Positions 1 through 7,605 of a stretch of 7,605 nucleotides of DNA are shown here, one piece after another. Position numbers and translations under genes: made by a program. The stretch lies in IMG/VR virus record IMGVR_UViG_2693429676_000010, positions 1 through 7,605 of that record. One strand, 5' to 3'. The notes beneath the pieces are model-generated. The model was not told the origin of the DNA. It made no database searches and was given only the letters and a program-made list of their open reading frames with translations. The stretch's first letter is position 1. Each line of letters opens with the position of its first letter. The DNA comes from a virus. Lineage: Duplodnaviria > Heunggongvirae > Uroviricota > Caudoviricetes.

Positions 1-73
1 CAAAGTGATCTACTATTCCGCGCAGCTATTTAGGAGTAGAGCGATAACGTGTTTTAATTCTGTCTCGTTCATT

Positions 74-229
74 TTACTCACCTGAATGTCTTCCCAACCA
101 ACGACGTGCGCCAGCTTCGGTTTTAAACGTTTTGCTTTTGGTATACGTCATGGCGGTGAATGTGCCGTCTTGATTGGGAAACACGCCACATACCAGAGAT
201 TCGTTGTTGCCAAGATCGATAGTATTCAT
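74..229 (-). CDS. small hypothetical prophage protein (51 aa from ATG at 229; the ORF extends to 292 only with a TTG start). Possibly YdaF-like, unverified
   Basis: ORF track 74..292 minus. Internal ATG at 227-229 is preceded by a GGGG Shine-Dalgarno-like run about 6 nt upstream, whereas the TTG at 292 has no recognisable RBS. Sits downstream of a terminator and a candidate promoter. No recognisable domain. Confidence 0.4.
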   Translation of the reverse strand: MNTIDLGNNESLVCGVFPNQDGTFTAMTYTKSKTFKTEAGARRWLGRHSGE

Positions 230-409
230 GTTGACCCCATTTCCCCTTAACGCCGGGTGGCGGAACGTTTTATCTACTGCGCTTTGTATCAATCAACAAC
301 TGCCGTCATGTTCGTATGCCTCAGGCTGGCTACTTAGCCCTGTTCAGTGACTGGATAACTCGAGGTATTGTCCTGCCGTTCTCTGGTGGGGCGTTGTTTG
401 GATATGCTT

Positions 410-438
410 ATTAAACACAATTTGTTTTCTTGTGTCAA
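410..438 (-). promoter_or_regulatory. candidate sigma70 promoter for the small leftward ORF (-35 TTGACA, 17-nt spacer, -10 TTTAAT on minus strand)
   Basis: Plus-strand TGTCAA at 433-438 is a perfect TTGACA on the minus strand; plus-strand ATTAAA at 410-415 is TTTAAT on the minus strand; the spacer 416-432 is 17 nt. Confidence 0.35.
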
Positions 439-479
439 CACGCAATGTGTTTTATGGTGAGTGTCATATGATGATGCTA

Positions 480-504
480 CAAAAAAGCCCGCTGATAGCG
501 GGCT
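480..504 (-). terminator. rho-independent terminator of the leftward repressor transcript
   Basis: Perfect 8-bp stem AGCCCGCT (486-493) / AGCGGGCT (497-504) with a 3-nt loop. The plus-strand A6 run at 481-486 is a U-tract directly after the stem on the minus strand. Located 30 bp past the repressor stop at 535. Confidence 0.65.
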
Positions 505-534
505 GATTGGCATATTACTGTGATAGCAAGATCA

Positions 535-954
535 TTATTCCGGTGGGGGATTATCTTTAATCCTGCCTCTCAAATATTTTTCTACATACTCATCGATTTC
601 TTTTAGCCGGACTTCAAATAGCTCAATCATTCGTTGTTGTTCTGAGCCCGGTAGCTGGTTAAACAACTCAAGAAGTTTTCGTTGGGATTCATTTAACCAC
701 AATTCAGAAGATTCCTGTTCTCCAAAGAGGAGCTCAGGAGGAGATATGCCAAGTGCCTTTCCCAATACGACAGCGTCATGTACTCCAACATTTCTGCTGC
801 CCGCCTCATAGTTACCTATACGCGATTGCGTCCATCCGCAGATTTCAGCAAGTTTTCCTTGAGATAAACCAAGCTTCTGCCTGCGCTCTTTAAGACGCAT
901 TGCAATTTTGTCATTGAGCCTACTAGCGGCAATTTTTTCGTTTTCTTTTTCCAT
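535..954 (-). CDS. prophage repressor, HTH XRE family (cI/RacR-type), 139 aa, no S24 peptidase domain
   Basis: ORF 535..954 minus. Helix-turn-helix signature LGLSQGKLAEICGWTQSRIGNYEAG in the N-terminal half; short helical C-terminal region; AAGGA RBS upstream on the minus strand; divergent from a Cro-like gene; followed by a terminator. Confidence 0.85.
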   Translation of the reverse strand: MEKENEKIAASRLNDKIAMRLKERRQKLGLSQGKLAEICGWTQSRIGNYEAGSRNVGVHDAVVLGKALGISPPELLFGEQESSELWLNESQRKLLELFNQLPGSEQQRMIELFEVRLKEIDEYVEKYLRGRIKDNPPPE

Positions 955-1050
955 TGCATCCTTGTATCACGAATCGTGATTTACATAAAACACAAAACAG
1001 CTTGGCTATATAACACAAGGTGTGTTTAAAATTGTCATCGGAGGTTTTCA
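955..1050. promoter_or_regulatory. divergent promoter/operator region between repressor and cro-like gene
   Basis: 96-bp AT-rich intergenic region containing a perfect 7-bp-arm palindrome ATCACGA-A-TCGTGAT (966-980) and an inverted repeat ACACA-AGG-TGTGT (1013-1025); TTTACA at 980-985 and TTGGCT at 1002-1007 are possible -35 elements. Exact promoter assignment not resolved. Confidence 0.5.
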
Positions 1051-1293
1051 ATGAACAAAATTTCAACATATCGAAAACAGCTTGGGCTGTCTCAAAGACA
1101 ACTTGCTGTTCAGTTAGGGTGGATACAAAGCCGACTGGCAAATTACGAAGCAAATTTTCGTACCCCTGGACTAGAGGAGTGCAGAAAAATTGTTTCTACC
1201 CTTAATCGGCTTGGCGCTCATTGTGGACTTGACGATGTATTCCCCCCAGACGGTAAGCATAGCGAAAACAGCATAGGAGCGGTTGATTCATGA
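1051..1293 (+). CDS. Cro-like HTH (XRE) transcriptional regulator, 80 aa
   Basis: ORF 1051..1293 plus. GGAGG RBS 6 nt upstream of the ATG; HTH signature LGLSQRQLAVQLGWIQSRLANYE; divergent from the repressor; its stop overlaps the next start (ATGA at 1290-1293). Confidence 0.8.
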   Translation: MNKISTYRKQLGLSQRQLAVQLGWIQSRLANYEANFRTPGLEECRKIVSTLNRLGAHCGLDDVFPPDGKHSENSIGAVDS

Positions 1294-1559
1294 AAATCAG
1301 GCATGAGCACATCGAATCAGTGTTGTTAGCCCTGGCAGCCGAAAAAGGGCAGGCGTGGGTCGCTAACGCAATTACTGAAGAATATCTGCGCCAGGGGGGC
1401 GGCGAATTGCCCCTTGTACCAGGCAAGGACTGGAACAATCAGCAGAATATCTATCACCGTTGGTTGAAAGGTGAAACGAAAGCGCAAAGGGAAAAAATTC
1501 AGAAACTGATCCCTGCGGTTCTGGCAATTCTTCCGCGNCGCTTGGCTCAGTGCGAATAA
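1290..1559 (+). CDS. ydaT: CII-like regulator (YdaT-type), copy 1, truncated: genuine homology ends at the N at 1538 and the last 7 codons are junction-derived
   Basis: The N-terminal 82 aa are near-identical to the 1994..2415 copy. From recall, resembles Rac prophage YdaT. The sequence after the N at 1538 is antisense of a RacR-like gene, so the stop at 1557-1559 is not the native one. Confidence 0.6.
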   Translation: MKIRHEHIESVLLALAAEKGQAWVANAITEEYLRQGGGELPLVPGKDWNNQQNIYHRWLKGETKAQREKIQKLIPAVLAILPXRLAQCE

Positions 1560-1706
1560 TCTTTTCCCCGCCGGCTGTGTTTCATCTCTTTCCCATTGAG
1601 AAATTGTTACGTGAGCCACTTTGACCAGCTTACCTAATGCGGCCTGAGACAGTTTTAATTTTTTACGCCTATGTAAGAGGCGAGCACCGAAGGTTTCGTT
1701 TTTCAT
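1539..1706 (-). pseudogene. racR: RacR-like HTH repressor, 5' fragment only (first ~56 codons), truncated at the N at 1538
   Basis: The minus ORF starts at ATG 1706 and reads MKNETFGARLLHRRKKLKLSQAALGKLVKVAHVTISQWERDETQ (HTH). Past the N it continues only as antisense of ydaT copy 1. Divergent from the ydaS-like gene, as in Rac. Symbol by recalled synteny. Confidence 0.55.
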
Positions 1707-1782
1707 ATTAGGGAATTCTAATTTTTCTTGACTTAGGTTTCTCTACGATCTAGTTTCCTTAGGAAAATCTAAGGAGCTCGAT
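1707..1782. promoter_or_regulatory. divergent regulatory region between racR-like and ydaS-like genes
   Basis: Minus-strand TAGAAT (plus ATTCTA 1715-1720) lies 8 nt upstream of the racR-like ATG with no SD, suggesting a leaderless transcript. TTGACT at 1728-1733. CTTAGG repeats at 1732-1737 and 1758-1763, CTAAGG at 1769-1774, and an inverted repeat TTTCC-TTA-GGAAA at 1754-1766. Confidence 0.4.
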
Positions 1783-2010
1783 ATGTTGAAAATTGATGCT
1801 ATAGCGTTTTTTGGCAGCAAAACAAAGCTTGCCAATGCCGCAGGAGTTAGGCTGGCAAGCATTGCTGCATGGGGGGAACTGGTTCCTGAAGGTCGCGCGA
1901 TGCGCCTGCAAGAGGCATCTGGCGGGGAACTTCAGTACGACCCCAAAGTTTATGACGAATATCGTAAGGCAAAACGACCTTGGAAGGTGATTCATGAAAA
2001 TCAGGCATGA
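1783..2010 (+). CDS. ydaS: YdaS-like Cro-type regulator, 75 aa
   Basis: ORF 1783..2010 plus. Strong RBS TAAGGAG 6 nt upstream; divergent from the racR-like gene; its 3' end overlaps the ydaT copy-2 start by 17 nt. Symbol from recalled Rac gene order. Confidence 0.75.
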   Translation: MLKIDAIAFFGSKTKLANAAGVRLASIAAWGELVPEGRAMRLQEASGGELQYDPKVYDEYRKAKRPWKVIHENQA

Positions 2011-2415
2011 GCACATCGAATCAGTGCTGTTGCCCTGGCAGCCGAAAAAGGGCAGGCGTGGGTCGCTAACGCAATTACTGAAGAATATCTGCGCCAGGGG
2101 GGCGGCGAATTGCCCCTTGTACCAGGCAAGGACTGGAACAATCAGCAGAATATCTATCACCGTTGGTTGAAAGGTGAAACGAAAGCGCAAAGGGAAAAAA
2201 TTCAGAAACTGATCCCTGCGGTTCTGGCAATTCTTCCGCGCGAGCTGCGTCACCGACTCTGCATCTTCGATACCCTGGAACGCCGTGCATTACTGGCGGC
2301 GCAGGAAGCGTTGAGTACGGCAATTGATGCGCATGATGATGCAGTCCAGGCCGTTTACCGGAAAGCGCATTTCAGCGGCGGCGGGTCTTCCGACGATTCT
2401 GTCATTGTTCATTAA
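1994..2415 (+). pseudogene. ydaT: CII-like regulator (YdaT-type), copy 2, about 140 codons, interrupted by a 1-nt deletion near codon 14
   Basis: Near-identical to copy 1, but GTTAGCC in copy 1 is GTTGCC here (around 2030), shifting frame from the ATG at 1994 into a stop at about 2168-2170. The ORF track recovers the remainder as 2110..2415 in another frame. Confidence 0.6.
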
Positions 2416-2478
2416 GCAAAAGTTTCCATGCTGTTTGTGCTTATTCTAAGCAACCGGGCAGCATCATACGGGGCAATT

Positions 2479-3627
2479 ATGGCCGCATTACCATACATGC
2501 AACTGTACATAGCTGATTACCTGGCTGACACCATGCATTTGTCAGCAGAGGAGCACGGCGCGTATTTGTTGCTGATGTTCAATTACTGGCAAACAGGAAA
2601 GCCAATACCCAAAAACAGGTTGGCAAAAATTGCCCGTCTGACTAACGAGCGATGGGTTGATGTTGAACCATCCTTGCGGGAGTTTTTTTGTGATAACGGC
2701 GACGAATGGATGCATCTTCGGATTGAGGAAGATCTGGCATCTGTCAGAGAAAAATTAACCAAAAAATCAGCCGCAGGAAAAGCATCTGTTCAGGCCAGAA
2801 GAAGCAGAAAGGAAGCAGATGTTCAAACAAAACAAGAGAGAAATTTAACAGGTGTTCAAACAGATGTTGGAGTGATGTTCGAACATGATGCCAACACAAA
2901 GGCAACTAATAAAGATACAGATAAAGATCTAAAAACAGATCTAACCCATCCCAAACCCTTCCCTTCCGGAAGGGAGTTTCGGGATTTTGTGGCTGGAGTG
3001 CTTGAGGGGAGATTATCTGGCGGTACTGCAGCGGAATTTTGTAATTCTGCGGTGGTTGCGTTGCAGGCTGCTGGCCTGGATGTCTGTCGTGAGTATCCGG
3101 TGCCAGAGCGTGGTGACGGTTGCGGAGGGCGGATTGATATCGTCGTGACTGACAGGAACGGTGTCCGGTGTGGGAGCGAGCTTGACCGAAATTCTCCGCG
3201 ACAGAAATCACTGCTCAAAATCGGTGCTGTTGAAACCGGGATATGTGTCTTGCGGCGCAGTGATATCGCAAGGCACACCGAGCAGGGAATTCTGGTTATC
3301 GGTGGGGCTGTTCGCCAGAAAAAATTTGACCCGTTGTCAGTTGATCTGCCCGACTGGTTGCCAGAAACACTCTGGCATGAGTGGGTCCAGTTCAGGCAGG
3401 CATTGCGAAAACCGATTCGAACGGAGCAGGGCGCTAACGGGGCGATACGGGAACTGGAAAAATTCCGTCAGCAGGGTTTTACACCTGAGCAGGTGATTCG
3501 ACACAGCATCGCCAATGAATACCAGGGCCTGTTCGCGCCGAAAGGTGTTCGGCCTGAGACGTTGCTCCGACAGGTTAACACCGTCTCGTTGCCGGACAGT
3601 GCGATCCCGCCAGGCTTCAGGGGGTAA
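2479..3627 (+). CDS. replication initiator / replisome organiser, N-terminal DUF1376 (YdaU-like), 382 aa from ATG 2479 (the ORF extends to 2428)
   Basis: ORF 2428..3627 plus. The conserved DUF1376-like N-terminus PYMQLYIADYLADTMHLSAEEHGAY sits 5 residues after the ATG at 2479, so I prefer that start. Low-complexity linker encoded by repeats; C-terminal domain conserved in the other copies; stop overlaps the SD of the DnaC-like gene. Confidence 0.8.
   Translation: MAALPYMQLYIADYLADTMHLSAEEHGAYLLLMFNYWQTGKPIPKNRLAKIARLTNERWVDVEPSLREFFCDNGDEWMHLRIEEDLASVREKLTKKSAAGKASVQARRSRKEADVQTKQERNLTGVQTDVGVMFEHDANTKATNKDTDKDLKTDLTHPKPFPSGREFRDFVAGVLEGRLSGGTAAEFCNSAVVALQAAGLDVCREYPVPERGDGCGGRIDIVVTDRNGVRCGSELDRNSPRQKSLLKIGAVETGICVLRRSDIARHTEQGILVIGGAVRQKKFDPLSVDLPDWLPETLWHEWVQFRQALRKPIRTEQGANGAIRELEKFRQQGFTPEQVIRHSIANEYQGLFAPKGVRPETLLRQVNTVSLPDSAIPPGFRG
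2787..2946. other. candidate phage origin of replication embedded in the initiator gene (iteron-like repeats plus AT-rich tract)
   Basis: TGTTCA at 2787-2792; TGTTCAAACA at 2820-2829 and 2853-2862; palindromic TGTTCGAACA at 2876-2885 (spacings 33, 33, 23 bp). Followed by a roughly 75% AT tract at 2906-2945 with two AGATCT/GATC sites (2925-2930, 2937-2942). Analogous to lambda ori inside gene O. Confidence 0.45.
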
Positions 3628-3633
3628 CAGACC

Positions 3634-4380
3634 ATGAAAAATATTGCGACAGGAGGCGTTCTGGAGCGTATCCGCAGACTGACCCCACCACATGTAACCG
3701 CCCCATTCAGAACGGTTGCGGAGTGGCGCGAGTGGCAACTTGCTGAAGGCCAGAAACGTTGCGAGGAGATCAACCGCCTGAATCGTCAGTTGCGGGTGGA
3801 AAAAATCCTGAACCGCTCCGGCATCCAGCCGTTGCACCGGAAGTGTTCGTTTGCGAATTACCGGGCGCAGAACGACGGTCAGCGACATGCACTGAGTCAG
3901 GCGAAATCCATAGCTGACGAACTGATGACAGGCTGTACGAATTTTGTGTTCAGCGGTAAGCCCGGCACCGGAAAAAATCATCTTGCAGACGCGATTGGCA
4001 ACCGGCTGATGGCGAAGGGGCGTAGCGTGATTATCGTCACCGTGTCCGATGTCATGAGCGTGTTGCATGAGAGCTACGACAACGGCAAATCCGGTGAAAA
4101 ATTTTTACAGGAGCTTTGTGGTGTTGACCTGCTGGTCCTGGATGAAATTGGCATGCAGCGGGATACGAAAAACGAGCAGGTGGTACTGAACCAGATTGTT
4201 GATCGCCGGACGGCATCGTTACGCGGTGTGGGGATGCTGACAAATATTAACCATGCAGCGATGAATACACTTCTCGGCGAGCGGGTGATGGATCGCATGG
4301 TCATGAACGGCGGGCGCTGGGTGAATTTTAACTGGGAGAGCTGGCGTCCGAATGTTAGCCATTCGAGGGTTGTTAAGTAG
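3634..4380 (+). CDS. ydaV: DnaC-like helicase loader (AAA+ ATPase, YdaV-type), copy A, 248 aa
   Basis: Walker A GKPGTGKN at 3955-3978, as in E. coli DnaC; Walker B DLLVLDEIG; C-terminal LGERVMDRM motif; GGGG SD overlapping the upstream stop, suggesting translational coupling. Symbol by recalled Rac synteny. Confidence 0.9.
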   Translation: MKNIATGGVLERIRRLTPPHVTAPFRTVAEWREWQLAEGQKRCEEINRLNRQLRVEKILNRSGIQPLHRKCSFANYRAQNDGQRHALSQAKSIADELMTGCTNFVFSGKPGTGKNHLADAIGNRLMAKGRSVIIVTVSDVMSVLHESYDNGKSGEKFLQELCGVDLLVLDEIGMQRDTKNEQVVLNQIVDRRTASLRGVGMLTNINHAAMNTLLGERVMDRMVMNGGRWVNFNWESWRPNVSHSRVVK

Positions 4381-4394
4381 TTTCAGGAGGATTT

Positions 4395-4620
4395 ATGGCG
4401 AAACCTTTTACTCCCGAACAGCGGGAAGAACTGAAGACGCGAATTGTGGAACTCGTGCATCAGGACGGTCGGGTCACGATTCGGCAGTTGTCAGATGAAA
4501 CAGGTATCAGTCGTGCGTCTGTCGGTCGCTTATGCATAGAACTGGTCGCAAGTGGTGATGTATATAATTCTGGCTACGGGGTATTTCCCTCTGAACAGGC
4601 TCGCAAGGACTGGCAAAGCG
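4395..4620 (+). CDS. small putative DNA-binding protein (HTH-like, YdaW-like), 5' portion; interrupted by the N-run at 4621
   Basis: AGGAGG RBS 6 nt upstream of ATG 4395; HTH-like stretch VTIRQLSDETGISRASVGRLCIELVASGDV. The ORF-track continuation through the Ns into (RG)n is an artefact of reading through the gap. Confidence 0.6.
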
Positions 4621-4637
4621 NNNNNNNNNNNNNNNNN
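4621..4637. other. run of 17 N (assembly gap or masked bases)
   Basis: Directly visible. Flanking sequences are not contiguous in homology. Confidence 0.95.
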
Positions 4638-4638
4638 A

Positions 4639-4680
4639 GAGGAAGAGGAAGAGGAAGAGGAAGAGGAAGAGGAAGAGGAA
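4639..4680. repeat. hexanucleotide microsatellite (GAGGAA)x7 immediately after the N-run
   Basis: Seven perfect tandem GAGGAA units at 4639-4680. Not in frame with any credible gene. Confidence 0.9.
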
Positions 4681-4694
4681 GATCTAAATACTGA

Positions 4695-5030
4695 TCTCCC
4701 CCTCGCCAAAAACGAGCGTCTAAAAAATTCGAGCCGGAGGCTATTGAGCTGCCCGATTGGTTGCCGGAAACACTCTGGCATGAGTGGGTCCGGTTCAGAC
4801 AGGCATTGCGAAAACCGATTCGAACGGAGCAGGGCGCTAACGGGGCGATACGGGAACTGGAAAAATTCCGTCAGCAGGGTTTTACACCTGAGCAGGTGAT
4901 TCGACACAGCATCGCCAATGAATACCAGGGCCTGTTCGCGCCGAAAGGTGTTCGGCCTGAGACGTTGCTCCGACAGGTTAACACCGTCTCGTTGCCGGAC
5001 AGTGCGATCCCGCCAGGCTTCAGGGGGTAA
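4695..5030 (+). CDS. 3' fragment of a second, diverged initiator gene (C-terminal domain only), copy B
   Basis: In-frame stop at 4692-4694, then 111 codons. From LPDWLPETLWHEW onward it matches the copy-A C-terminus almost exactly (one Q-to-R change); upstream of about 4745 the sequence is unrelated to copy A. No upstream initiator body is present in the window. Confidence 0.5.
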   Translation, partial: SPPRQKRASKKFEPEAIELPDWLPETLWHEWVRFRQALRKPIRTEQGANGAIRELEKFRQQGFTPEQVIRHSIANEYQGLFAPKGVRPETLLRQVNTVSLPDSAIPPGFRG

Positions 5031-5036
5031 CGGACC

Positions 5037-5783
5037 ATGAAAAATATTGCGACAGGCGGCGTTCTGGAACGCATCCGCCGACTGACCCCGCCACATGTAA
5101 CCGCCCCATTCAGAACGGTAGCGGAGTGGCGCGAGTGGCAACTTGCTGAAGGCCAGAAACGTAGCGAGGAGATCAACCGCCTGAATCGCCAGTTGCGGGT
5201 GGAAAAAATTCTGAATCGCTCAGGCATCCAGCCGTTGCACCGTAAATGCTCGTTTGCGAATTACCAGGTGCAGAACGACGGCCAGCGATACGCGTTAAGC
5301 CAGGCGAAATCCATCGCCGATGAACTGATGACCGGGTGTACAAATTTTGCGTTCAGCGGAAAACTTGGTACCGGGAAGAATCACTTAGCGGCAGCTATCG
5401 GGAATCGCCTGCTGAAAGACGGTCAGACAGTGATTGTGGTTACCGTGGCTGATGTTATGAGCGCCCTGCACGCCAGCTATGACGACGGGCAGTCAGGCGA
5501 AAAATTTTTGCGGGAGCTGTGCGAAGTGGATCTGCTGGTTCTTGATGAAATTGGCATTCAGCGCGAGACGAAAAACGAGCAGGTGGTGCTGCACCAGATT
5601 GTTGATCGCCGGACAGCGTCGATGCGCAGCGTGGGGATGCTGACAAACCTGAACTATGAGGTGATGAAAACATTGCTCGGCGAGCGGGTGATGGATCGCA
5701 TGGTCATGAACGGCGGGCGCTGGGTGAATTTTAACTGGGAGAGCTGGCGTCCGAATGTTAGCCATTCGAGGGTTGTTAAGTAG
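5037..5783 (+). CDS. DnaC-like helicase loader, copy B (diverged paralog/allele), 248 aa
   Basis: Same length and architecture as copy A. About 30 of 248 residues differ by manual alignment; the nucleotide differences I checked in the first 66 nt are all synonymous. Walker A reads GKLGTGKN (P to L). Confidence 0.85.
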   Translation: MKNIATGGVLERIRRLTPPHVTAPFRTVAEWREWQLAEGQKRSEEINRLNRQLRVEKILNRSGIQPLHRKCSFANYQVQNDGQRYALSQAKSIADELMTGCTNFAFSGKLGTGKNHLAAAIGNRLLKDGQTVIVVTVADVMSALHASYDDGQSGEKFLRELCEVDLLVLDEIGIQRETKNEQVVLHQIVDRRTASMRSVGMLTNLNYEVMKTLLGERVMDRMVMNGGRWVNFNWESWRPNVSHSRVVK

Positions 5784-5797
5784 TTTCAGGAGGATTT

Positions 5798-5995
5798 ATG
5801 GCGAAACCTTTTACTCCCGAACAGCGGGAAGAACTGAAGACGCGAATTGTGGAACTCGTGCATCAGGACGGTCGGGTCACGATTCGGCAGTTGTCAGATG
5901 AAACAGGTATCAGTCGTGCGTCTGTCGGTCGCTTATGCATAGAACTGGTCGCAAGTGGTGATGTATATAATTCTGGCTACGGGGTATTTCCCTCT
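5798..5995 (+). CDS. YdaW-like small HTH gene, 5' portion, truncated at the N at 5996
   Basis: Identical to the start of the 4395 copy, with the same AGGAGG RBS; homology ends at the N. Confidence 0.55.
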
Positions 5996-5996
5996 N

Positions 5997-6095
5997 CTGT
6001 TCGCGCCGAAAGGTGTTCGGCCTGAGACGTTGCTCCGACAGGTTAACACCGTCTCGTTGCCGGACAGTGCGATCCCGCCAGGCTTCAGGGGGTAA
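5997..6095 (+). CDS. 3' tail (last ~32 codons) of the initiator gene, copy C, beginning at the N junction
   Basis: Matches 3529-3627 of copy A, ending in the same TAA and SD context. Confidence 0.45.
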   Translation: MFAPKGVRPETLLRQVNTVSLPDSAIPPGFRG

Positions 6096-6101
6096 CAGAC
6101 C

Positions 6102-6848
6102 ATGAAAAATATTGCGACAGGAGGCGTTCTGGAGCGTATCCGCAGACTGACCCCACCACATGTAACCGCCCCATTCAGAACGGTTGCGGAGTGGCGCGAG
6201 TGGCAACTTGCTGAAGGCCAGAAACGTTGCGAGGAGATCAACCGCCTGAATCGTCAGTTGCGGGTGGAAAAAATCCTGAACCGCTCCGGCATCCAGCCGT
6301 TGCACCGGAAGTGTTCGTTTGCGAATTACCGGGCGCAGAACGACGGTCAGCGACATGCACTGAGTCAGGCGAAATCCATAGCTGACGAACTGATGACAGG
6401 CTGTACGAATTTTGTGTTCAGCGGTAAGCCCGGCACCGGAAAAAATCATCTTGCAGACGCGATTGGCAACCGGCTGATGGCGAAGGGGCGTAGCGTGATT
6501 ATCGTCACCGTGTCCGATGTCATGAGCGTGTTGCATGAGAGCTACGACAACGGCAAATCCGGTGAAAAATTTTTACAGGAGCTTTGTGGTGTTGACCTGC
6601 TGGTCCTGGATGAAATTGGCATGCAGCGGGATACGAAAAACGAGCAGGTGGTACTGAACCAGATTGTTGATCGCCGGACGGCATCGTTACGCGGTGTGGG
6701 GATGCTGACAAATATTAACCATGCAGCGATGAATACACTTCTCGGCGAGCGGGTGATGGATCGCATGGTCATGAACGGCGGGCGCTGGGTGAATTTTAAC
6801 TGGGAGAGCTGGCGTCCGAATGTTAGCCATTCGAGGGTTGTTAAGTAG
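6102..6848 (+). CDS. ydaV: DnaC-like helicase loader, copy C (protein identical to copy A)
   Basis: The ORF-track translation is identical to 3634..4380; the whole unit is offset by 2468 bp from copy A. Confidence 0.85.
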   Translation: MKNIATGGVLERIRRLTPPHVTAPFRTVAEWREWQLAEGQKRCEEINRLNRQLRVEKILNRSGIQPLHRKCSFANYRAQNDGQRHALSQAKSIADELMTGCTNFVFSGKPGTGKNHLADAIGNRLMAKGRSVIIVTVSDVMSVLHESYDNGKSGEKFLQELCGVDLLVLDEIGMQRDTKNEQVVLNQIVDRRTASLRGVGMLTNINHAAMNTLLGERVMDRMVMNGGRWVNFNWESWRPNVSHSRVVK

Positions 6849-6862
6849 TTTCAGGAGGATTT

Positions 6863-7231
6863 ATGGCGAAACCTTTTACTCCCGAACAGCGGGAAGAACT
6901 GAAGACGCGAATTGTGGAACTCGTGCATCAGGACGGTCGGGTCACGATTCGGCAGTTGTCAGATGAAACAGGTATCAGTCGTGCGTCTGTCGGTCGCTTA
7001 TGCATAGAACTGGTCGCAAGTGGTGATGTATATAATTCTGGCTACGGCTTATTCCCGTCTGAACAGGCTCGCAAGGACTGGCAAAGCGCCCGCAAAAAAC
7101 TCTCGAGAGTAAAGGTGAGGAAACCGGTTGTTGTTGATCCGGACCTTATCTGGTCATTACCTGACGGAGAAATACGCCGCTACGACAGGCGCCTGAATAT
7201 AATCTGTCGCGAGTGCCGGAAGAGCGAAGCT
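6863..7231 (+). CDS. YdaW-like small HTH gene, longest copy (123 codons before the N at 7232; native 3' end not determinable)
   Basis: Same start and RBS as the other copies, with a GVFP to GLFP variant near 7045. The continuation past the N is junction-derived. Confidence 0.6.
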
Positions 7232-7233
7232 NT

Positions 7234-7605
7234 ATGGCGAAACCTTTTACTCCCGAACAGCGGGAAGAACTGAAGACGCGAATTGTGGAACTCGTGCATC
7301 AGGACGGTCGGGTCACGATTCGGCAGTTGTCAGATGAAACAGGTATCAGTCGTGCGTCTGTCGGTCGCTTATGCATGGAACTGGTCGCAAGTGGTGATGT
7401 ATATAATTCTGGCTACGGGGTATTTCCCTCTGAACAGGCTCATAAAGACTGGCAAAACGCCCGCAAAAAGCTATCGAGGGTAAAGGTGAAGAAACCGGTT
7501 GTGGTTGATCCTGACCTTATCTGGTCATTACCAGACGGAGAAATACGCCGCTACGACAGGCGCCTGAATATAATCTGTCGCGAGTGCCGGAAGAGCGAAG
7601 CTATG
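7234..7605 (+). CDS. YdaW-like small HTH gene, further variant copy starting right after the N; open to the window end
   Basis: ATG at 7234-7236, no stop through 7605. Several substitutions relative to the 6863 copy (for example I to M at 7378, R to H and S to N around 7441-7456). Preceded by coding sequence, not by the usual RBS, so the placement is likely an assembly join. Confidence 0.45.
   Translation, partial: MAKPFTPEQREELKTRIVELVHQDGRVTIRQLSDETGISRASVGRLCMELVASGDVYNSGYGVFPSEQAHKDWQNARKKLSRVKVKKPVVVDPDLIWSLPDGEIRRYDRRLNIICRECRKSEAM

Follow-up and report, generated by a model that had tools for sequence, protein, structure and literature searches.

A draft scaffold that probably joins two Rac-like prophages with different immunity cassettes and near-identical ydaT sequence

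The window analysed here, the whole stretch of 7,605 nucleotides at the start of IMG/VR record IMGVR_UViG_2693429676_000010, is very probably a short-read draft scaffold, with Shigella sonnei or a closely related E. coli as its probable source, of at least two Rac-like prophages that carry near-identical ydaT-ydaU-ydaV-ydaW genes but different immunity cassettes. BLAST aligned window positions 1284-1537 with 1988-2240 as a stretch of 254 nt containing 1 mismatch and 1 single-base gap (E = 8e-128), confirming that near-identical ydaT sequence follows both immunity modules, as had been described in an initial annotation of this DNA. The proposal in that annotation that the window samples two immunity types of one prophage family was also supported, in the form of two prophages in one genome brought together by assembly, by an N junction between the modules and by a complete genome that contains both arrangements.

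Scaffold junctions and the continuation of each prophage

The window consisted of five segments of ACGT sequence with Ns between them, and each segment overlapped its neighbours in homologous sequence. The two immunity modules, A and B, are separated by a single N at 1538 that joins an A-prophage contig to a B-prophage contig, and each flank of this N continues otherwise in complete genomes. The first copy of ydaT (1290-1537, plus strand) was the A-prophage allele, in frame and identical to the ydaT of VL40 over this stretch, and it contained codons 1-82 only, stopping exactly at the N. Beyond the N the second repressor gene was cut at 1539 with the first 56 of its 135 codons kept (1539-1706). 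As the N and the truncated genes on both sides interrupt the sequence, no uninterrupted stretch crosses the duplication junction to establish the two modules as physical neighbours. Position 1537 was the last base of a 122-nt stretch that is identical in the A and B prophages, and the next position (2241) differs between them. Querying 5,426 complete E. coli genomes with the junction-spanning sequence (1051-2010) at a coverage of at least 80% returned no match. The tandem layout reported in the initial annotation, in which the N had been missed, therefore held for the modules themselves, as both are real, but not for their adjacency, which is a scaffold join.

A real tandem, that is one prophage with two immunity regions in series that arose through unequal recombination between two ydaT copies, would take up the duplicated ydaT, which was correctly observed, and the order of the pieces is compatible with the product of an unequal crossover. 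This explanation was ruled out by the N junction, the truncated genes and the absence of the arrangement from the 5,426 closed genomes, and we consider its probability negligible. The junction coincides with the N itself, the point where the ydaT fragment stops is a repeat branch point and not a plausible crossover, and the dicA-like gene is cut in the middle of its codon string, where the join has no homology to ydaT. N-joined repetition of this kind also runs through the remainder of the window. The contigs at 5997-7231 and 7233-7605 (plus strand) are likewise joined by single Ns and repeat ydaV/ydaW alleles, and the window as a whole contained three to four ydaW alleles and three ydaV copies with 0.4-11% divergence. 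These features are like the collapsed-repeat and scaffold mis-joins of short-read drafts, in which N-separated contigs duplicate one another's sequence, contigs end where near-identical paralogues branch and alleles are mixed across short identical stretches, and nothing set the window apart from this usual artefact. The assembler would have broken or crossed contigs within the shared stretches, and the scaffolder would then have strung the alternative contigs together in a row, separated by Ns, which would produce the apparent order of A cassette, ydaT fragment, N, truncated B repressor, B cro and ydaT.

Colinearity with other prophages was used to follow each contig to its likely continuation. 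VL40 was colinear with window 31-1537 and 2241-4620 at 99.6-99.7% identity, and the true molecule of prophage A would probably run from 1-1537 to 2241-4620. This continuation of segment 1 encodes a ydaU-like gene (DUF1376), ydaV (DnaC/IstB-like) and the 5' part of ydaW (DUF977) by Pfam (2428-4620, plus strand), and the Pfam scan gave no match in the middle of the 399-aa ydaU-like protein. Prophage B would probably run from 1539 to about 2093, through a B-type ydaT/ydaU that is missing from the window, and on to 4638-5995. Segment 3 (4638-5995, plus strand) contains the 3' end of the B-prophage ydaU, ydaV and the 5' part of ydaW, the sequence in which the B immunity module truly continues, and was 99.6-99.7% identical to two loci, L010 and L033, that are both colinear with window 1539-2413. 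S. sonnei 53G and CP061367.1 were colinear with 1539-2093 (100%) and with 4638-5995 (99.6-99.7%), and in CP061367.1 the exact segment-3 ydaV allele was located 3' of the DicA/DicC pair.

The A and B arrangements were found together in the complete genome FDAARGOS_944 as two distinct Rac-like prophages with about 716 kb between them. Segment 1 matched at a median of 2 sites per complete genome and at as many as 7, indicating that several Rac-like prophages per genome are normal. Both observations bear on the explanation that the two immunity types came from two strains in a mixed or contaminated sample. Such a mixture could also yield three to four ydaW alleles and three ydaV copies that are this far apart, but it is very unlikely given that both cassette types occur on a single closed chromosome and that multiple Rac-like prophages per genome are common. 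In addition, the A cassette was present in S. sonnei drafts of the same accession series and the B cassette in the closed S. sonnei 53G genome. A scaffold of collapsed paralogous prophages makes the gene order, copy number and ydaT pseudogene status in this record unreliable, and neither a dual-immunity prophage nor a duplication should be annotated from the apparent tandem immunity regions.

The second ydaT copy

Neither copy of ydaT had an intact frame. Copy 1 was cut at the N after codon 82, and copy 2 (1994-2415, plus strand) was full length, with its frame shifted by the loss of 1 nt between 2031 and 2032. This deletion was also present in 10 B-prophage loci (L009-L018, from nine complete genomes and one draft contig). 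An error at the join was ruled out as the source of the frameshift, as the same C-plus-deletion allele was found 3' of the DicA/DicC cassette in the nine closed genomes and the draft contig, and the frameshift is native to the Shigella sonnei B prophage.

The 5' end of ydaT copy 2 was the B allele and the rest of the gene was the A allele. Window 1539-2093 matched B (L010) at 100% identity and window 2032-3175 matched A (VL40) at 100%, so that in segment 2 the B-type sequence extends no further than 2093 and the A-type sequence begins no earlier than 2032. The switch occurs inside a 62-nt stretch that is identical in the A and B prophages (2032-2093), a chimeric structure that the initial annotation had not picked up. 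If the N junction is artefactual and segment 2 is a true contig, it would represent a genuine recombinant prophage in which a DicA/DicC-type cassette and the 5' B ydaT were joined within 2032-2093 to an A-type ydaT-ydaU-ydaV. Segment 2 is without N or ambiguity from 1539 to 4620 including the B-to-A switch, and a stretch of 62 identical nucleotides suffices for an occasional exchange of the RecA or Red type. Immunity and replication modules do reassort around ydaT in nature: the A cassette was found with both ydaU types (DUF1376-type and 262-aa-type), and the B cassette was accompanied in PPompW/Stx2a phages by another cII-like gene. We nevertheless judge a recombinant prophage unlikely. Segment 2 was found end to end in no complete E. 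coli genome and its best matches start at the YdaT-box, while among the 10 loci with an identical DicC-type protein and the deletion allele, 8 (7 of these from complete genomes) had B-type replication genes directly next. The true B-type continuation is moreover in the window itself as segment 3, with its exact ydaV allele linked to the B cassette elsewhere, and the A-specific SNPs at 2094-2118 recurred at 1390-1414, which is what double use of a single A copy would produce.

The other two of those 10 loci were L016, with an intervening IS insertion, and L015, without a ydaV call. Another mixed combination was seen in four sister draft assemblies, in which the B-type C/deletion allele followed the A cassette, and this points to other collapsed assemblies, though it could also reflect genuine gene conversion between resident prophages. 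Among deposited phages none had either whole arrangement at high coverage, the best match being a record of 8 kb named 'Escherichia phage Rac' (85.6% identity).

Immunity cassettes A and B

Cassette A (271-1283) is a non-homologous block between conserved flanks, with similarity to the B prophage ending at 270 and resuming at 1284. The left flank is common to A- and B-type prophages (window 33-270, 96% identical to B prophage L002) and contains a DUF1391 gene (ydaF/ydfA-like; 74-229, minus strand; Pfam PF07151, 98.8 bits) that is annotated as a 51-aa protein in L001 and L003. The cassette encodes an XRE family repressor of 139 aa (535-954, minus strand; Pfam HTH_3, 49.4 bits) and a small cro-like HTH protein of 80 aa (1051-1293, plus strand; Pfam HTH_3, 39.3 bits), divergent with 96 nt between them and upstream of ydaT copy 1, in agreement with the XRE repressor/Cro pair first assigned to 535-1293. 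The repressor scored 57 bits on the NCBIfam DicA model, under the cut-off of 101, and appears to be a distant DicA relative. The stop codon of the cro-like gene overlaps the ydaT start (ATGA). A pattern search detected two OL-like palindromes of the form AACAC-N5-GTGTT at 414-428 (1 mismatch) and 437-451, and an OR-like palindrome, AACACAAGGTGTGTT, at 1012-1026 in the divergent intergenic region (955-1050). These 3 matches in the window compare to 0.21 expected, and at least 3 matches were obtained in 0 of 200 shuffles. Just 3' of the repressor gene a terminator-like hairpin was present (486-504, minus strand; 8-bp stem with 6 GC pairs and a T-run), which is a consensus match only, and a scan of 230-2100 for sigma-70 promoters and terminators gave a number of sites no higher than in shuffled sequence.

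In module B, too, the repressor and cro-like genes diverge, from an intergenic region of 76 nt. The 5' fragment of the repressor (1539-1706, minus strand), truncated at the N and with an HTH hit in Pfam, was 100% identical to the S. sonnei 53G locus L010, and the gene is complete in L002 and L010. The full-length homologue from L002, which aligns ungapped against the window fragment, scored 237.3 bits on NCBIfam DicA (cut-off 101). The cro-like protein of 75 aa (1783-2010, plus strand) scored 153.8 bits on NCBIfam DicC (cut-off 130) and matched Pfam P22_Cro, and its gene has a 17-nt overlap with ydaT such that its last 7 codons traverse the YdaT-box. Compared to K-12 Qin, the repressor was 62% identical to DicA and the cro-like protein 74% identical to DicC, indicating by protein homology that module B is DicA/DicC-type. 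The initial annotation had recognised a second immunity pair at 1539-2010 and had labelled it RacR-like/YdaS; a divergent pair upstream of ydaT copy 2 was indeed present, but a RacR/YdaS pair was ruled out. BLASTP of the A and B repressors against K-12 RacR gave only E = 2.9 and 2.1, the cro-like proteins gave no alignment with YdaS, and the score on Pfam YdaS_toxin was 20.4 bits, below the cut-off of 30. Two operator-like palindromes of a B type, TTAG-N6-CTAA, were located in the divergent intergenic region (1708-1721 and 1759-1772; 2 matches versus 0.07 expected), and a third, OL-like copy was found left of the repressor gene in L010. Module B shares the divergent arrangement and the DUF1391 neighbour with K-12 Qin dicA-dicC, but what comes after dicC is a ydfX-type gene in Qin and the PPompW/Stx2a phages and ydaT in the window.

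Modules A and B had zero nucleotide similarity and their cro-like proteins had no detectable similarity. The repressors, however, were homologous (30% identity over 127 aa, E = 5e-17), and the earlier claim that nothing detectable is shared between the modules thus applies to the DNA and the cro-like proteins but not to these distantly related repressors. By its sequence each cassette is self-contained and brings a repressor, a cro-like gene, putative OL- and OR-like operators of its own and a separate RBS for ydaT.

The YdaT-box at the boundary of homology

Homology in the ydaT region started with TGATTCATGAAAATC, at 1284 in the first copy and 1988 in the second. In all four cassette types (A, B, K-12 Rac and D) homology began at the same nucleotide, 6 nt 5' of the ATG and at base 2 of the published YdaT-box, followed by ydaT genes that were 91.5-99% identical. 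This common breakpoint supports the exchange of immunity cassettes at a conserved boundary near the ydaT start, as originally proposed, with the coincidence of breakpoint and YdaT-box resting on a sample of four cassette types. The boundary had been placed at the ydaT RBS/start, which was close for the start, but homology begins 3' of the Shine-Dalgarno of each cassette and the RBS is therefore cassette-specific and not common to the cassettes. The boundary corresponds instead to the experimentally mapped YdaT-box.

The YdaT protein of the window matched PF06254 (44.4 bits, cut-off 21) as well as PDB 3c4r and 8bt1, and had 97% amino-acid identity to K-12 YdaT. Its gene has the layout of a cII-type gene, directly 3' of cro and followed by a DUF1376 ydaU and an IstB/DnaC-like ydaV (Pfam). 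Published work has established YdaT as an equivalent of CII (PMC11879457, PMC9986795). In K-12 Rac this CII-like activator binds the YdaT-box, ATGATTCATGAAAATCAA, which has been footprinted and functionally tested, and turns on a leftward PRE-like promoter for repressor synthesis (PMC11879457). The box was footprinted and functionally tested in CP-933P as well (PMC9986795). The toxin-antitoxin label of YdaS/YdaT, which comes from Pfam naming, is disputed, and the published roles are those of cro- and cII-like regulators (PMC5917428, PMC11879457). In the window, box copy 1, TTGATTCATGAAAATCAG (1283-1300, plus strand), had 11 of the 12 specified bases of TTGATT-N6-AATCAA with the ydaT ATG within the spacer, as in K-12, and copy 2, GTGATTCATGAAAATCAG (1987-2004, plus strand), had 10 of 12. 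Matches to this pattern at up to 2 mismatches are not rare alone, with at least 2 found in 22 of 200 shuffles. By analogy with K-12, YdaT would be expected to act on both window boxes.

The layout of the window matches that of K-12 Rac racR-ydaS-ydaT, with a divergent repressor and cro-like gene followed by ydaT, ydaU, ydaV and ydaW (PMC11879457; PMC5917428), and the box over the ydaT ATG matched at 16 of 18 positions. The differences from Rac are that neither window cassette is homologous to RacR or YdaS, that the first base of the box is T or G in the window and A in K-12, and that ydaT copy 1 is truncated by the N and copy 2 is frameshifted. In the CP-933P paaR2-ydaS-ydaT region of E. coli O157:H7 the recognition sequence of a YdaT-family CII equivalent, TTGATT-N6-AATCAA, lies where the cro-like gene ends (PMC9986795, PMC8630535). 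The box of the A cassette agrees with this consensus at 11 of 12 positions, but the CP-933P YdaT is only distantly related to that of the window (PDB 8bt1, E = 1.2e-5) and the upstream module of CP-933P is the toxin-antitoxin-linked PaaR2 system.

The exchange seen here is classic lambdoid immunity-cassette exchange. Lambdoid mosaicism of these prophages is known biology, and the prophages are already annotated in thousands of genomes. In the imm434 and imm21 substitutions of lambda, and in the modular theory, the repressor, operators and cro form a block that is exchanged while the flanks on either side stay conserved, and the cII gene together with its site of action lies in the conserved right flank. 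The prophages of the window are like these phages in that the repressor/operator/cro block is swapped and the activator and its site are in the conserved right flank. They differ from lambda in that the POU-like tetramer YdaT takes the place of CII, and in that the boundary falls at about the first base of the activator site, overlapping the start codon. As the YdaT-box is at the start of the conserved right flank, YdaT and its binding site travel with the replication genes and can adjoin any immunity cassette. A breakpoint at about the first base of the box in four cassette types fits a regulator and its cis site being swapped as a unit. We tentatively suggest, as one possibility that we do not yet favour, that exchange may occur preferentially, and under functional constraint, at the left edge of the YdaT-box, such that a CII-like activator, its own site and the replication genes form a portable unit behind unrelated repressor/cro cassettes (A, DicA/DicC, RacR/YdaS and D). 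If this is true, YdaT could drive establishment transcription into any cassette, with each cassette bringing its own leftward promoter.

Gene content of the window and the junction at position 1538

The genes of the window are those of a Rac-like lambdoid prophage early region, in the same order as in K-12 Rac. A DUF1391 gene (74-229, minus strand) and cassette A, consisting of a 139-aa HTH_3 repressor (535-954, minus strand) and an 80-aa HTH_3 cro-like protein (1051-1293, plus strand), precede ydaT codons 1-82 (1290-1537, plus strand). Cassette B consists of a repressor fragment (1539-1706, minus strand) and a 75-aa P22_Cro/DicC-type protein (1783-2010, plus strand) and is followed on the plus strand by a ydaT frameshifted by a 1-nt deletion (1994-2415), a DUF1376 ydaU-like gene (2428-3627), an IstB/DnaC-like ydaV (3634-4380) and a DUF977 ydaW (from 4395). 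The sequence is not continuous. Five ACGT segments (1-1537, 1539-4620, 4638-5995, 5997-7231 and 7233-7605) are separated by Ns at 1538, 4621-4637, 5996 and 7232, and each segment shares homologous sequence with its neighbours. The 5' end of ydaT is present twice, and this repeat, reported in the initial annotation, was confirmed as a 254-nt match between 1284-1537 and 1988-2240 with one mismatch (T1323 versus C2027) and one single-base gap (A1328, missing after 2031). The ydaU 3' end, ydaV and ydaW are present three to four times in N-joined contigs (3319-7605, 89-99.6% identity) with at least three distinct ydaW alleles, suggesting that the source genome probably carried three or more related prophage replication modules.

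Several features of the replication genes were also recorded. The ydaU-like ORF is intact in the window (399 aa, DUF1376 at residues 22-104); where FDAARGOS_944 and VL40 have this sequence, RefSeq annotates a YdaU pseudogene in two incomplete pieces. A Pfam scan gave no match in the middle ~140 aa of the protein (2905-3330), which looks like an inserted segment. The ydaV allele at 5037-5783 encodes the Walker-A motif GKLGTGKN as compared to GKPGTGKN in the other two copies in the window, and a sequencing error was ruled out by the presence of the exact protein in 155 collection blocks and in a closed genome, CP061367.1. A stretch of poly-Glu in the B-type ydaU-like protein is encoded by a (GAGGAA)n hexanucleotide repeat at 4638-4680, beside the 17-N gap. 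In different closed genomes, alignments of this region start at 4638, 4644 or 4656, indicating that the copy number differs between strains, and the repeat is probably the reason for the assembly gap.

At the junction, ydaT copy 1 runs right up to the N at 1538 and the sequence that follows opens in the middle of the minus-strand repressor gene, with 56 of its 135 codons left. A query spanning the junction (1051-2010) was covered to at least 80% in 0 of 5,426 complete E. coli genomes. In E. coli VL40 the equivalents of window 31-1537 and 2241-4620 follow one another directly and in colinear order (99.6-99.7% identity), the base after the equivalent of 1537 running on as window 2241 and not 1539. 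Window 1539-2093 was 100% identical to S. sonnei 53G (HE616528.1) and other closed genomes, in which the repressor gene goes on for 79 more codons where the window has its N and, after a further ~490 nt, colinearity resumes with segment 3 (4638-5995, 99.6-99.7%). The exact segment-3 ydaV allele was also found downstream of the B repressor/cro pair in CP061367.1 and several drafts. This colinearity argues that the window represents two prophages, assigning 1-1537 and 2241-4620 to prophage A and 1539 to ~2093, a stretch absent from the window and then 4638-5995 to prophage B. A and B are identical over a 122-nt stretch whose last base is also the last of segment 1, and they next differ at 2241; a short-read assembler would be expected to end a contig there. 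Segment 2 matches B at 100% as far as 2093 and A at 100% from 2032 onwards, so that the change of prophage falls within a 62-nt identical stretch. Scaffolding and gap-filling pipelines typically leave single-N joins between contigs that should overlap. The juxtaposition of A and B is a scaffold artefact and the tandem layout is not a biological feature, as the initial annotation had allowed in offering mis-assembly as one explanation.

Four sister drafts (CXCS01000143.1, CXCN01000169.1, CXBH01000247.1 and CXBQ01000281.1) carried another mix, in which the A cassette is followed by the B-type ydaT allele (C and the 1-nt deletion) and then by A-type sequence. This is either the expected product of repeat collapse in a shared pipeline or real gene conversion between resident prophages. 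The accession series matches the S. sonnei drafts of Holt et al. 2012 (per PMC5447701).

Identity of the cassettes and their putative operators

A full-length homologue of the B repressor scored 237 bits on NCBIfam DicA (cut-off 101 bits) and the B cro-like protein 153.8 bits on DicC (cut-off 130 bits). Their identity to the K-12 Qin proteins was 62% (DicA) and 74% (DicC). BLASTP detected no similarity of the module B proteins to K-12 RacR or YdaS. Module B is by sequence a DicA/DicC-type pair and not the RacR-like/YdaS pair first proposed. The A repressor scored 57 bits on DicA, under the cut-off, and shared 30% identity with the B repressor over 127 aa (E = 5e-17), which points to a distant DicA relative. 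The modules had been described as without detectable similarity, which is correct for the cro-like proteins, found to be unrelated, but not for the repressors.

Each cassette carries its own palindrome. AACAC-N5-GTGTT occurs in A at 414 and 437, left of the repressor gene, and at 1012, between the divergent genes (three matches against 0.21 expected; none of 200 shuffles reached three). TTAG-N6-CTAA occurs in B at 1708 and 1759 (0.07 expected), with a third copy in S. sonnei 53G to the left of the repressor gene. We infer that these are operators at OR- and OL-like positions, and their cassette specificity would imply that A and B differ in immunity specificity. Over 1,507 nt, segment 1 differed from VL40 at only four positions (432, 443, 460 and 1005), all in the non-coding regions bearing operator-like palindromes and none in repressor, cro-like or ydaT coding sequence.

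The YdaT-box at the cassette boundary

Four cassette types (A, B, K-12 Rac and one from strain ERL03-1416) were aligned around the ydaT start. The four showed no nucleotide similarity upstream of the boundary and 91.5-99% identity in ydaT downstream, and all four switched at the same nucleotide, 6 nt before the ATG (xTGATTCATGAAAATCA, x being T, G, A or T), bearing out the proposed modular exchange at a conserved boundary. The start of homology had been placed at the ydaT RBS, but the Shine-Dalgarno sequences differ from cassette to cassette (A has AGGAG and B has GGAAGG), so the RBS is not the conserved element; that element is the YdaT-box. A DNase footprint in K-12 Rac puts YdaT on ATGATTCATGAAAATCAA with the ydaT ATG inside the spacer, and when the box was mutated, the ~29-fold activation by YdaT was lost both at PracR4, the leftward promoter equivalent to PRE, and for racR expression (PMC11879457). 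In CP-933P, the homologous protein binds TTGATT-N6-AATCAA where the cro-like gene ends (PMC9986795). The window YdaT is 97% identical to that of K-12, and YdaT-boxes are predicted at 1283-1300 (TTGATTCATGAAAATCAG) and 1987-2004 (GTGATTCATGAAAATCAG). On the left, the cassette boundary (window 270/271, equivalent to 6601/6602 in the B prophage locus L002) is ~40 nt upstream of the start codon of the DUF1391 gene.

In K-12 Qin (L031, 2121-2137) and phage PPompW (L032, 3940-3975), the gene after dicC is of the ydfX type rather than ydaT, and its start codon again lies inside a box-like sequence, TTGAACAATGAAAATCAC. YdfX resembles YdaT over a short stretch around the recognition helix (41% over 29 aa, E = 6e-7) and could be a diverged, second CII-equivalent that has a similar site.

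Cassette exchange among Rac-like prophages

Both arrangements occur in the closed E. coli chromosome FDAARGOS_944, confirming the suggestion of two prophages in one genome. Its A-type prophage at 5.01 Mb (139-aa repressor, 80-aa cro-like protein, ydaT) and B-type prophage at 4.29 Mb (135-aa repressor, 75-aa cro-like protein, ydaT) lie ~716 kb apart and share a left flank of DUF1391/Rha/YdaE and a right flank of ydaT-ydaU-ydaV-ydaW. Both cassettes are common: at least 80% of segment 1 was present in 153 complete genomes, and the exact A and B cro-like proteins were found in 19,110 and 753 collection blocks. The A cassette occurs with the DUF1376-type ydaU in VL40 and FDAARGOS_944 and elsewhere with the 262-aa ydaU-like gene typical of B prophages, and PPompW and Stx2a-converting phages have the B cassette (1539-1973, 97.2%) next to another cII-like gene. 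Modules do reassort around ydaT. The S. sonnei B prophage has a frameshifted ydaT and many IS elements in the region, indicating a decaying, cryptic element. A partial E. coli Rac-like A cassette with ydaT (97% identity) was also found in PP818812.1 (6321-7563; Actinobacillus phage vB_Apl-pPE4), whose recorded host, Actinobacillus pleuropneumoniae, is odd for Rac-like sequence and may reflect contamination or mislabelling.

The initial observation was confirmed in part and its interpretation was largely right, apart from the name of module B, the claim of no similarity and the missed N at the junction. Publications already cover immunity-module mosaicism, the immunity genes of Rac and Qin and the YdaT-box, both arrangements are already annotated in closed genomes, and nothing here goes beyond known kinds. 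The only mildly new point is that in a small sample of four cassette types the breakpoint is exactly the first base of the YdaT-box. Reading the layout, domains, palindromes and box by homology to K-12 Rac and analogy to lambda, we propose that the repressor would keep the divergent promoters off via cassette-specific operators and that the cro-like protein would oppose it. YdaT, made from the same rightward transcript, would bind the box at its own start codon and stimulate leftward, repressor-establishing transcription. The cro-like gene and ydaT overlap by ATGA in A, where ydaT translation may be coupled, and by 17 nt in B. The exchange logic is that of the lambda imm434 and imm21 substitutions, the classical immunity swaps. 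Because YdaT and its box sit in the conserved flank, recombination there would exchange the whole repressor-operator-cro unit with no protein parted from its site.
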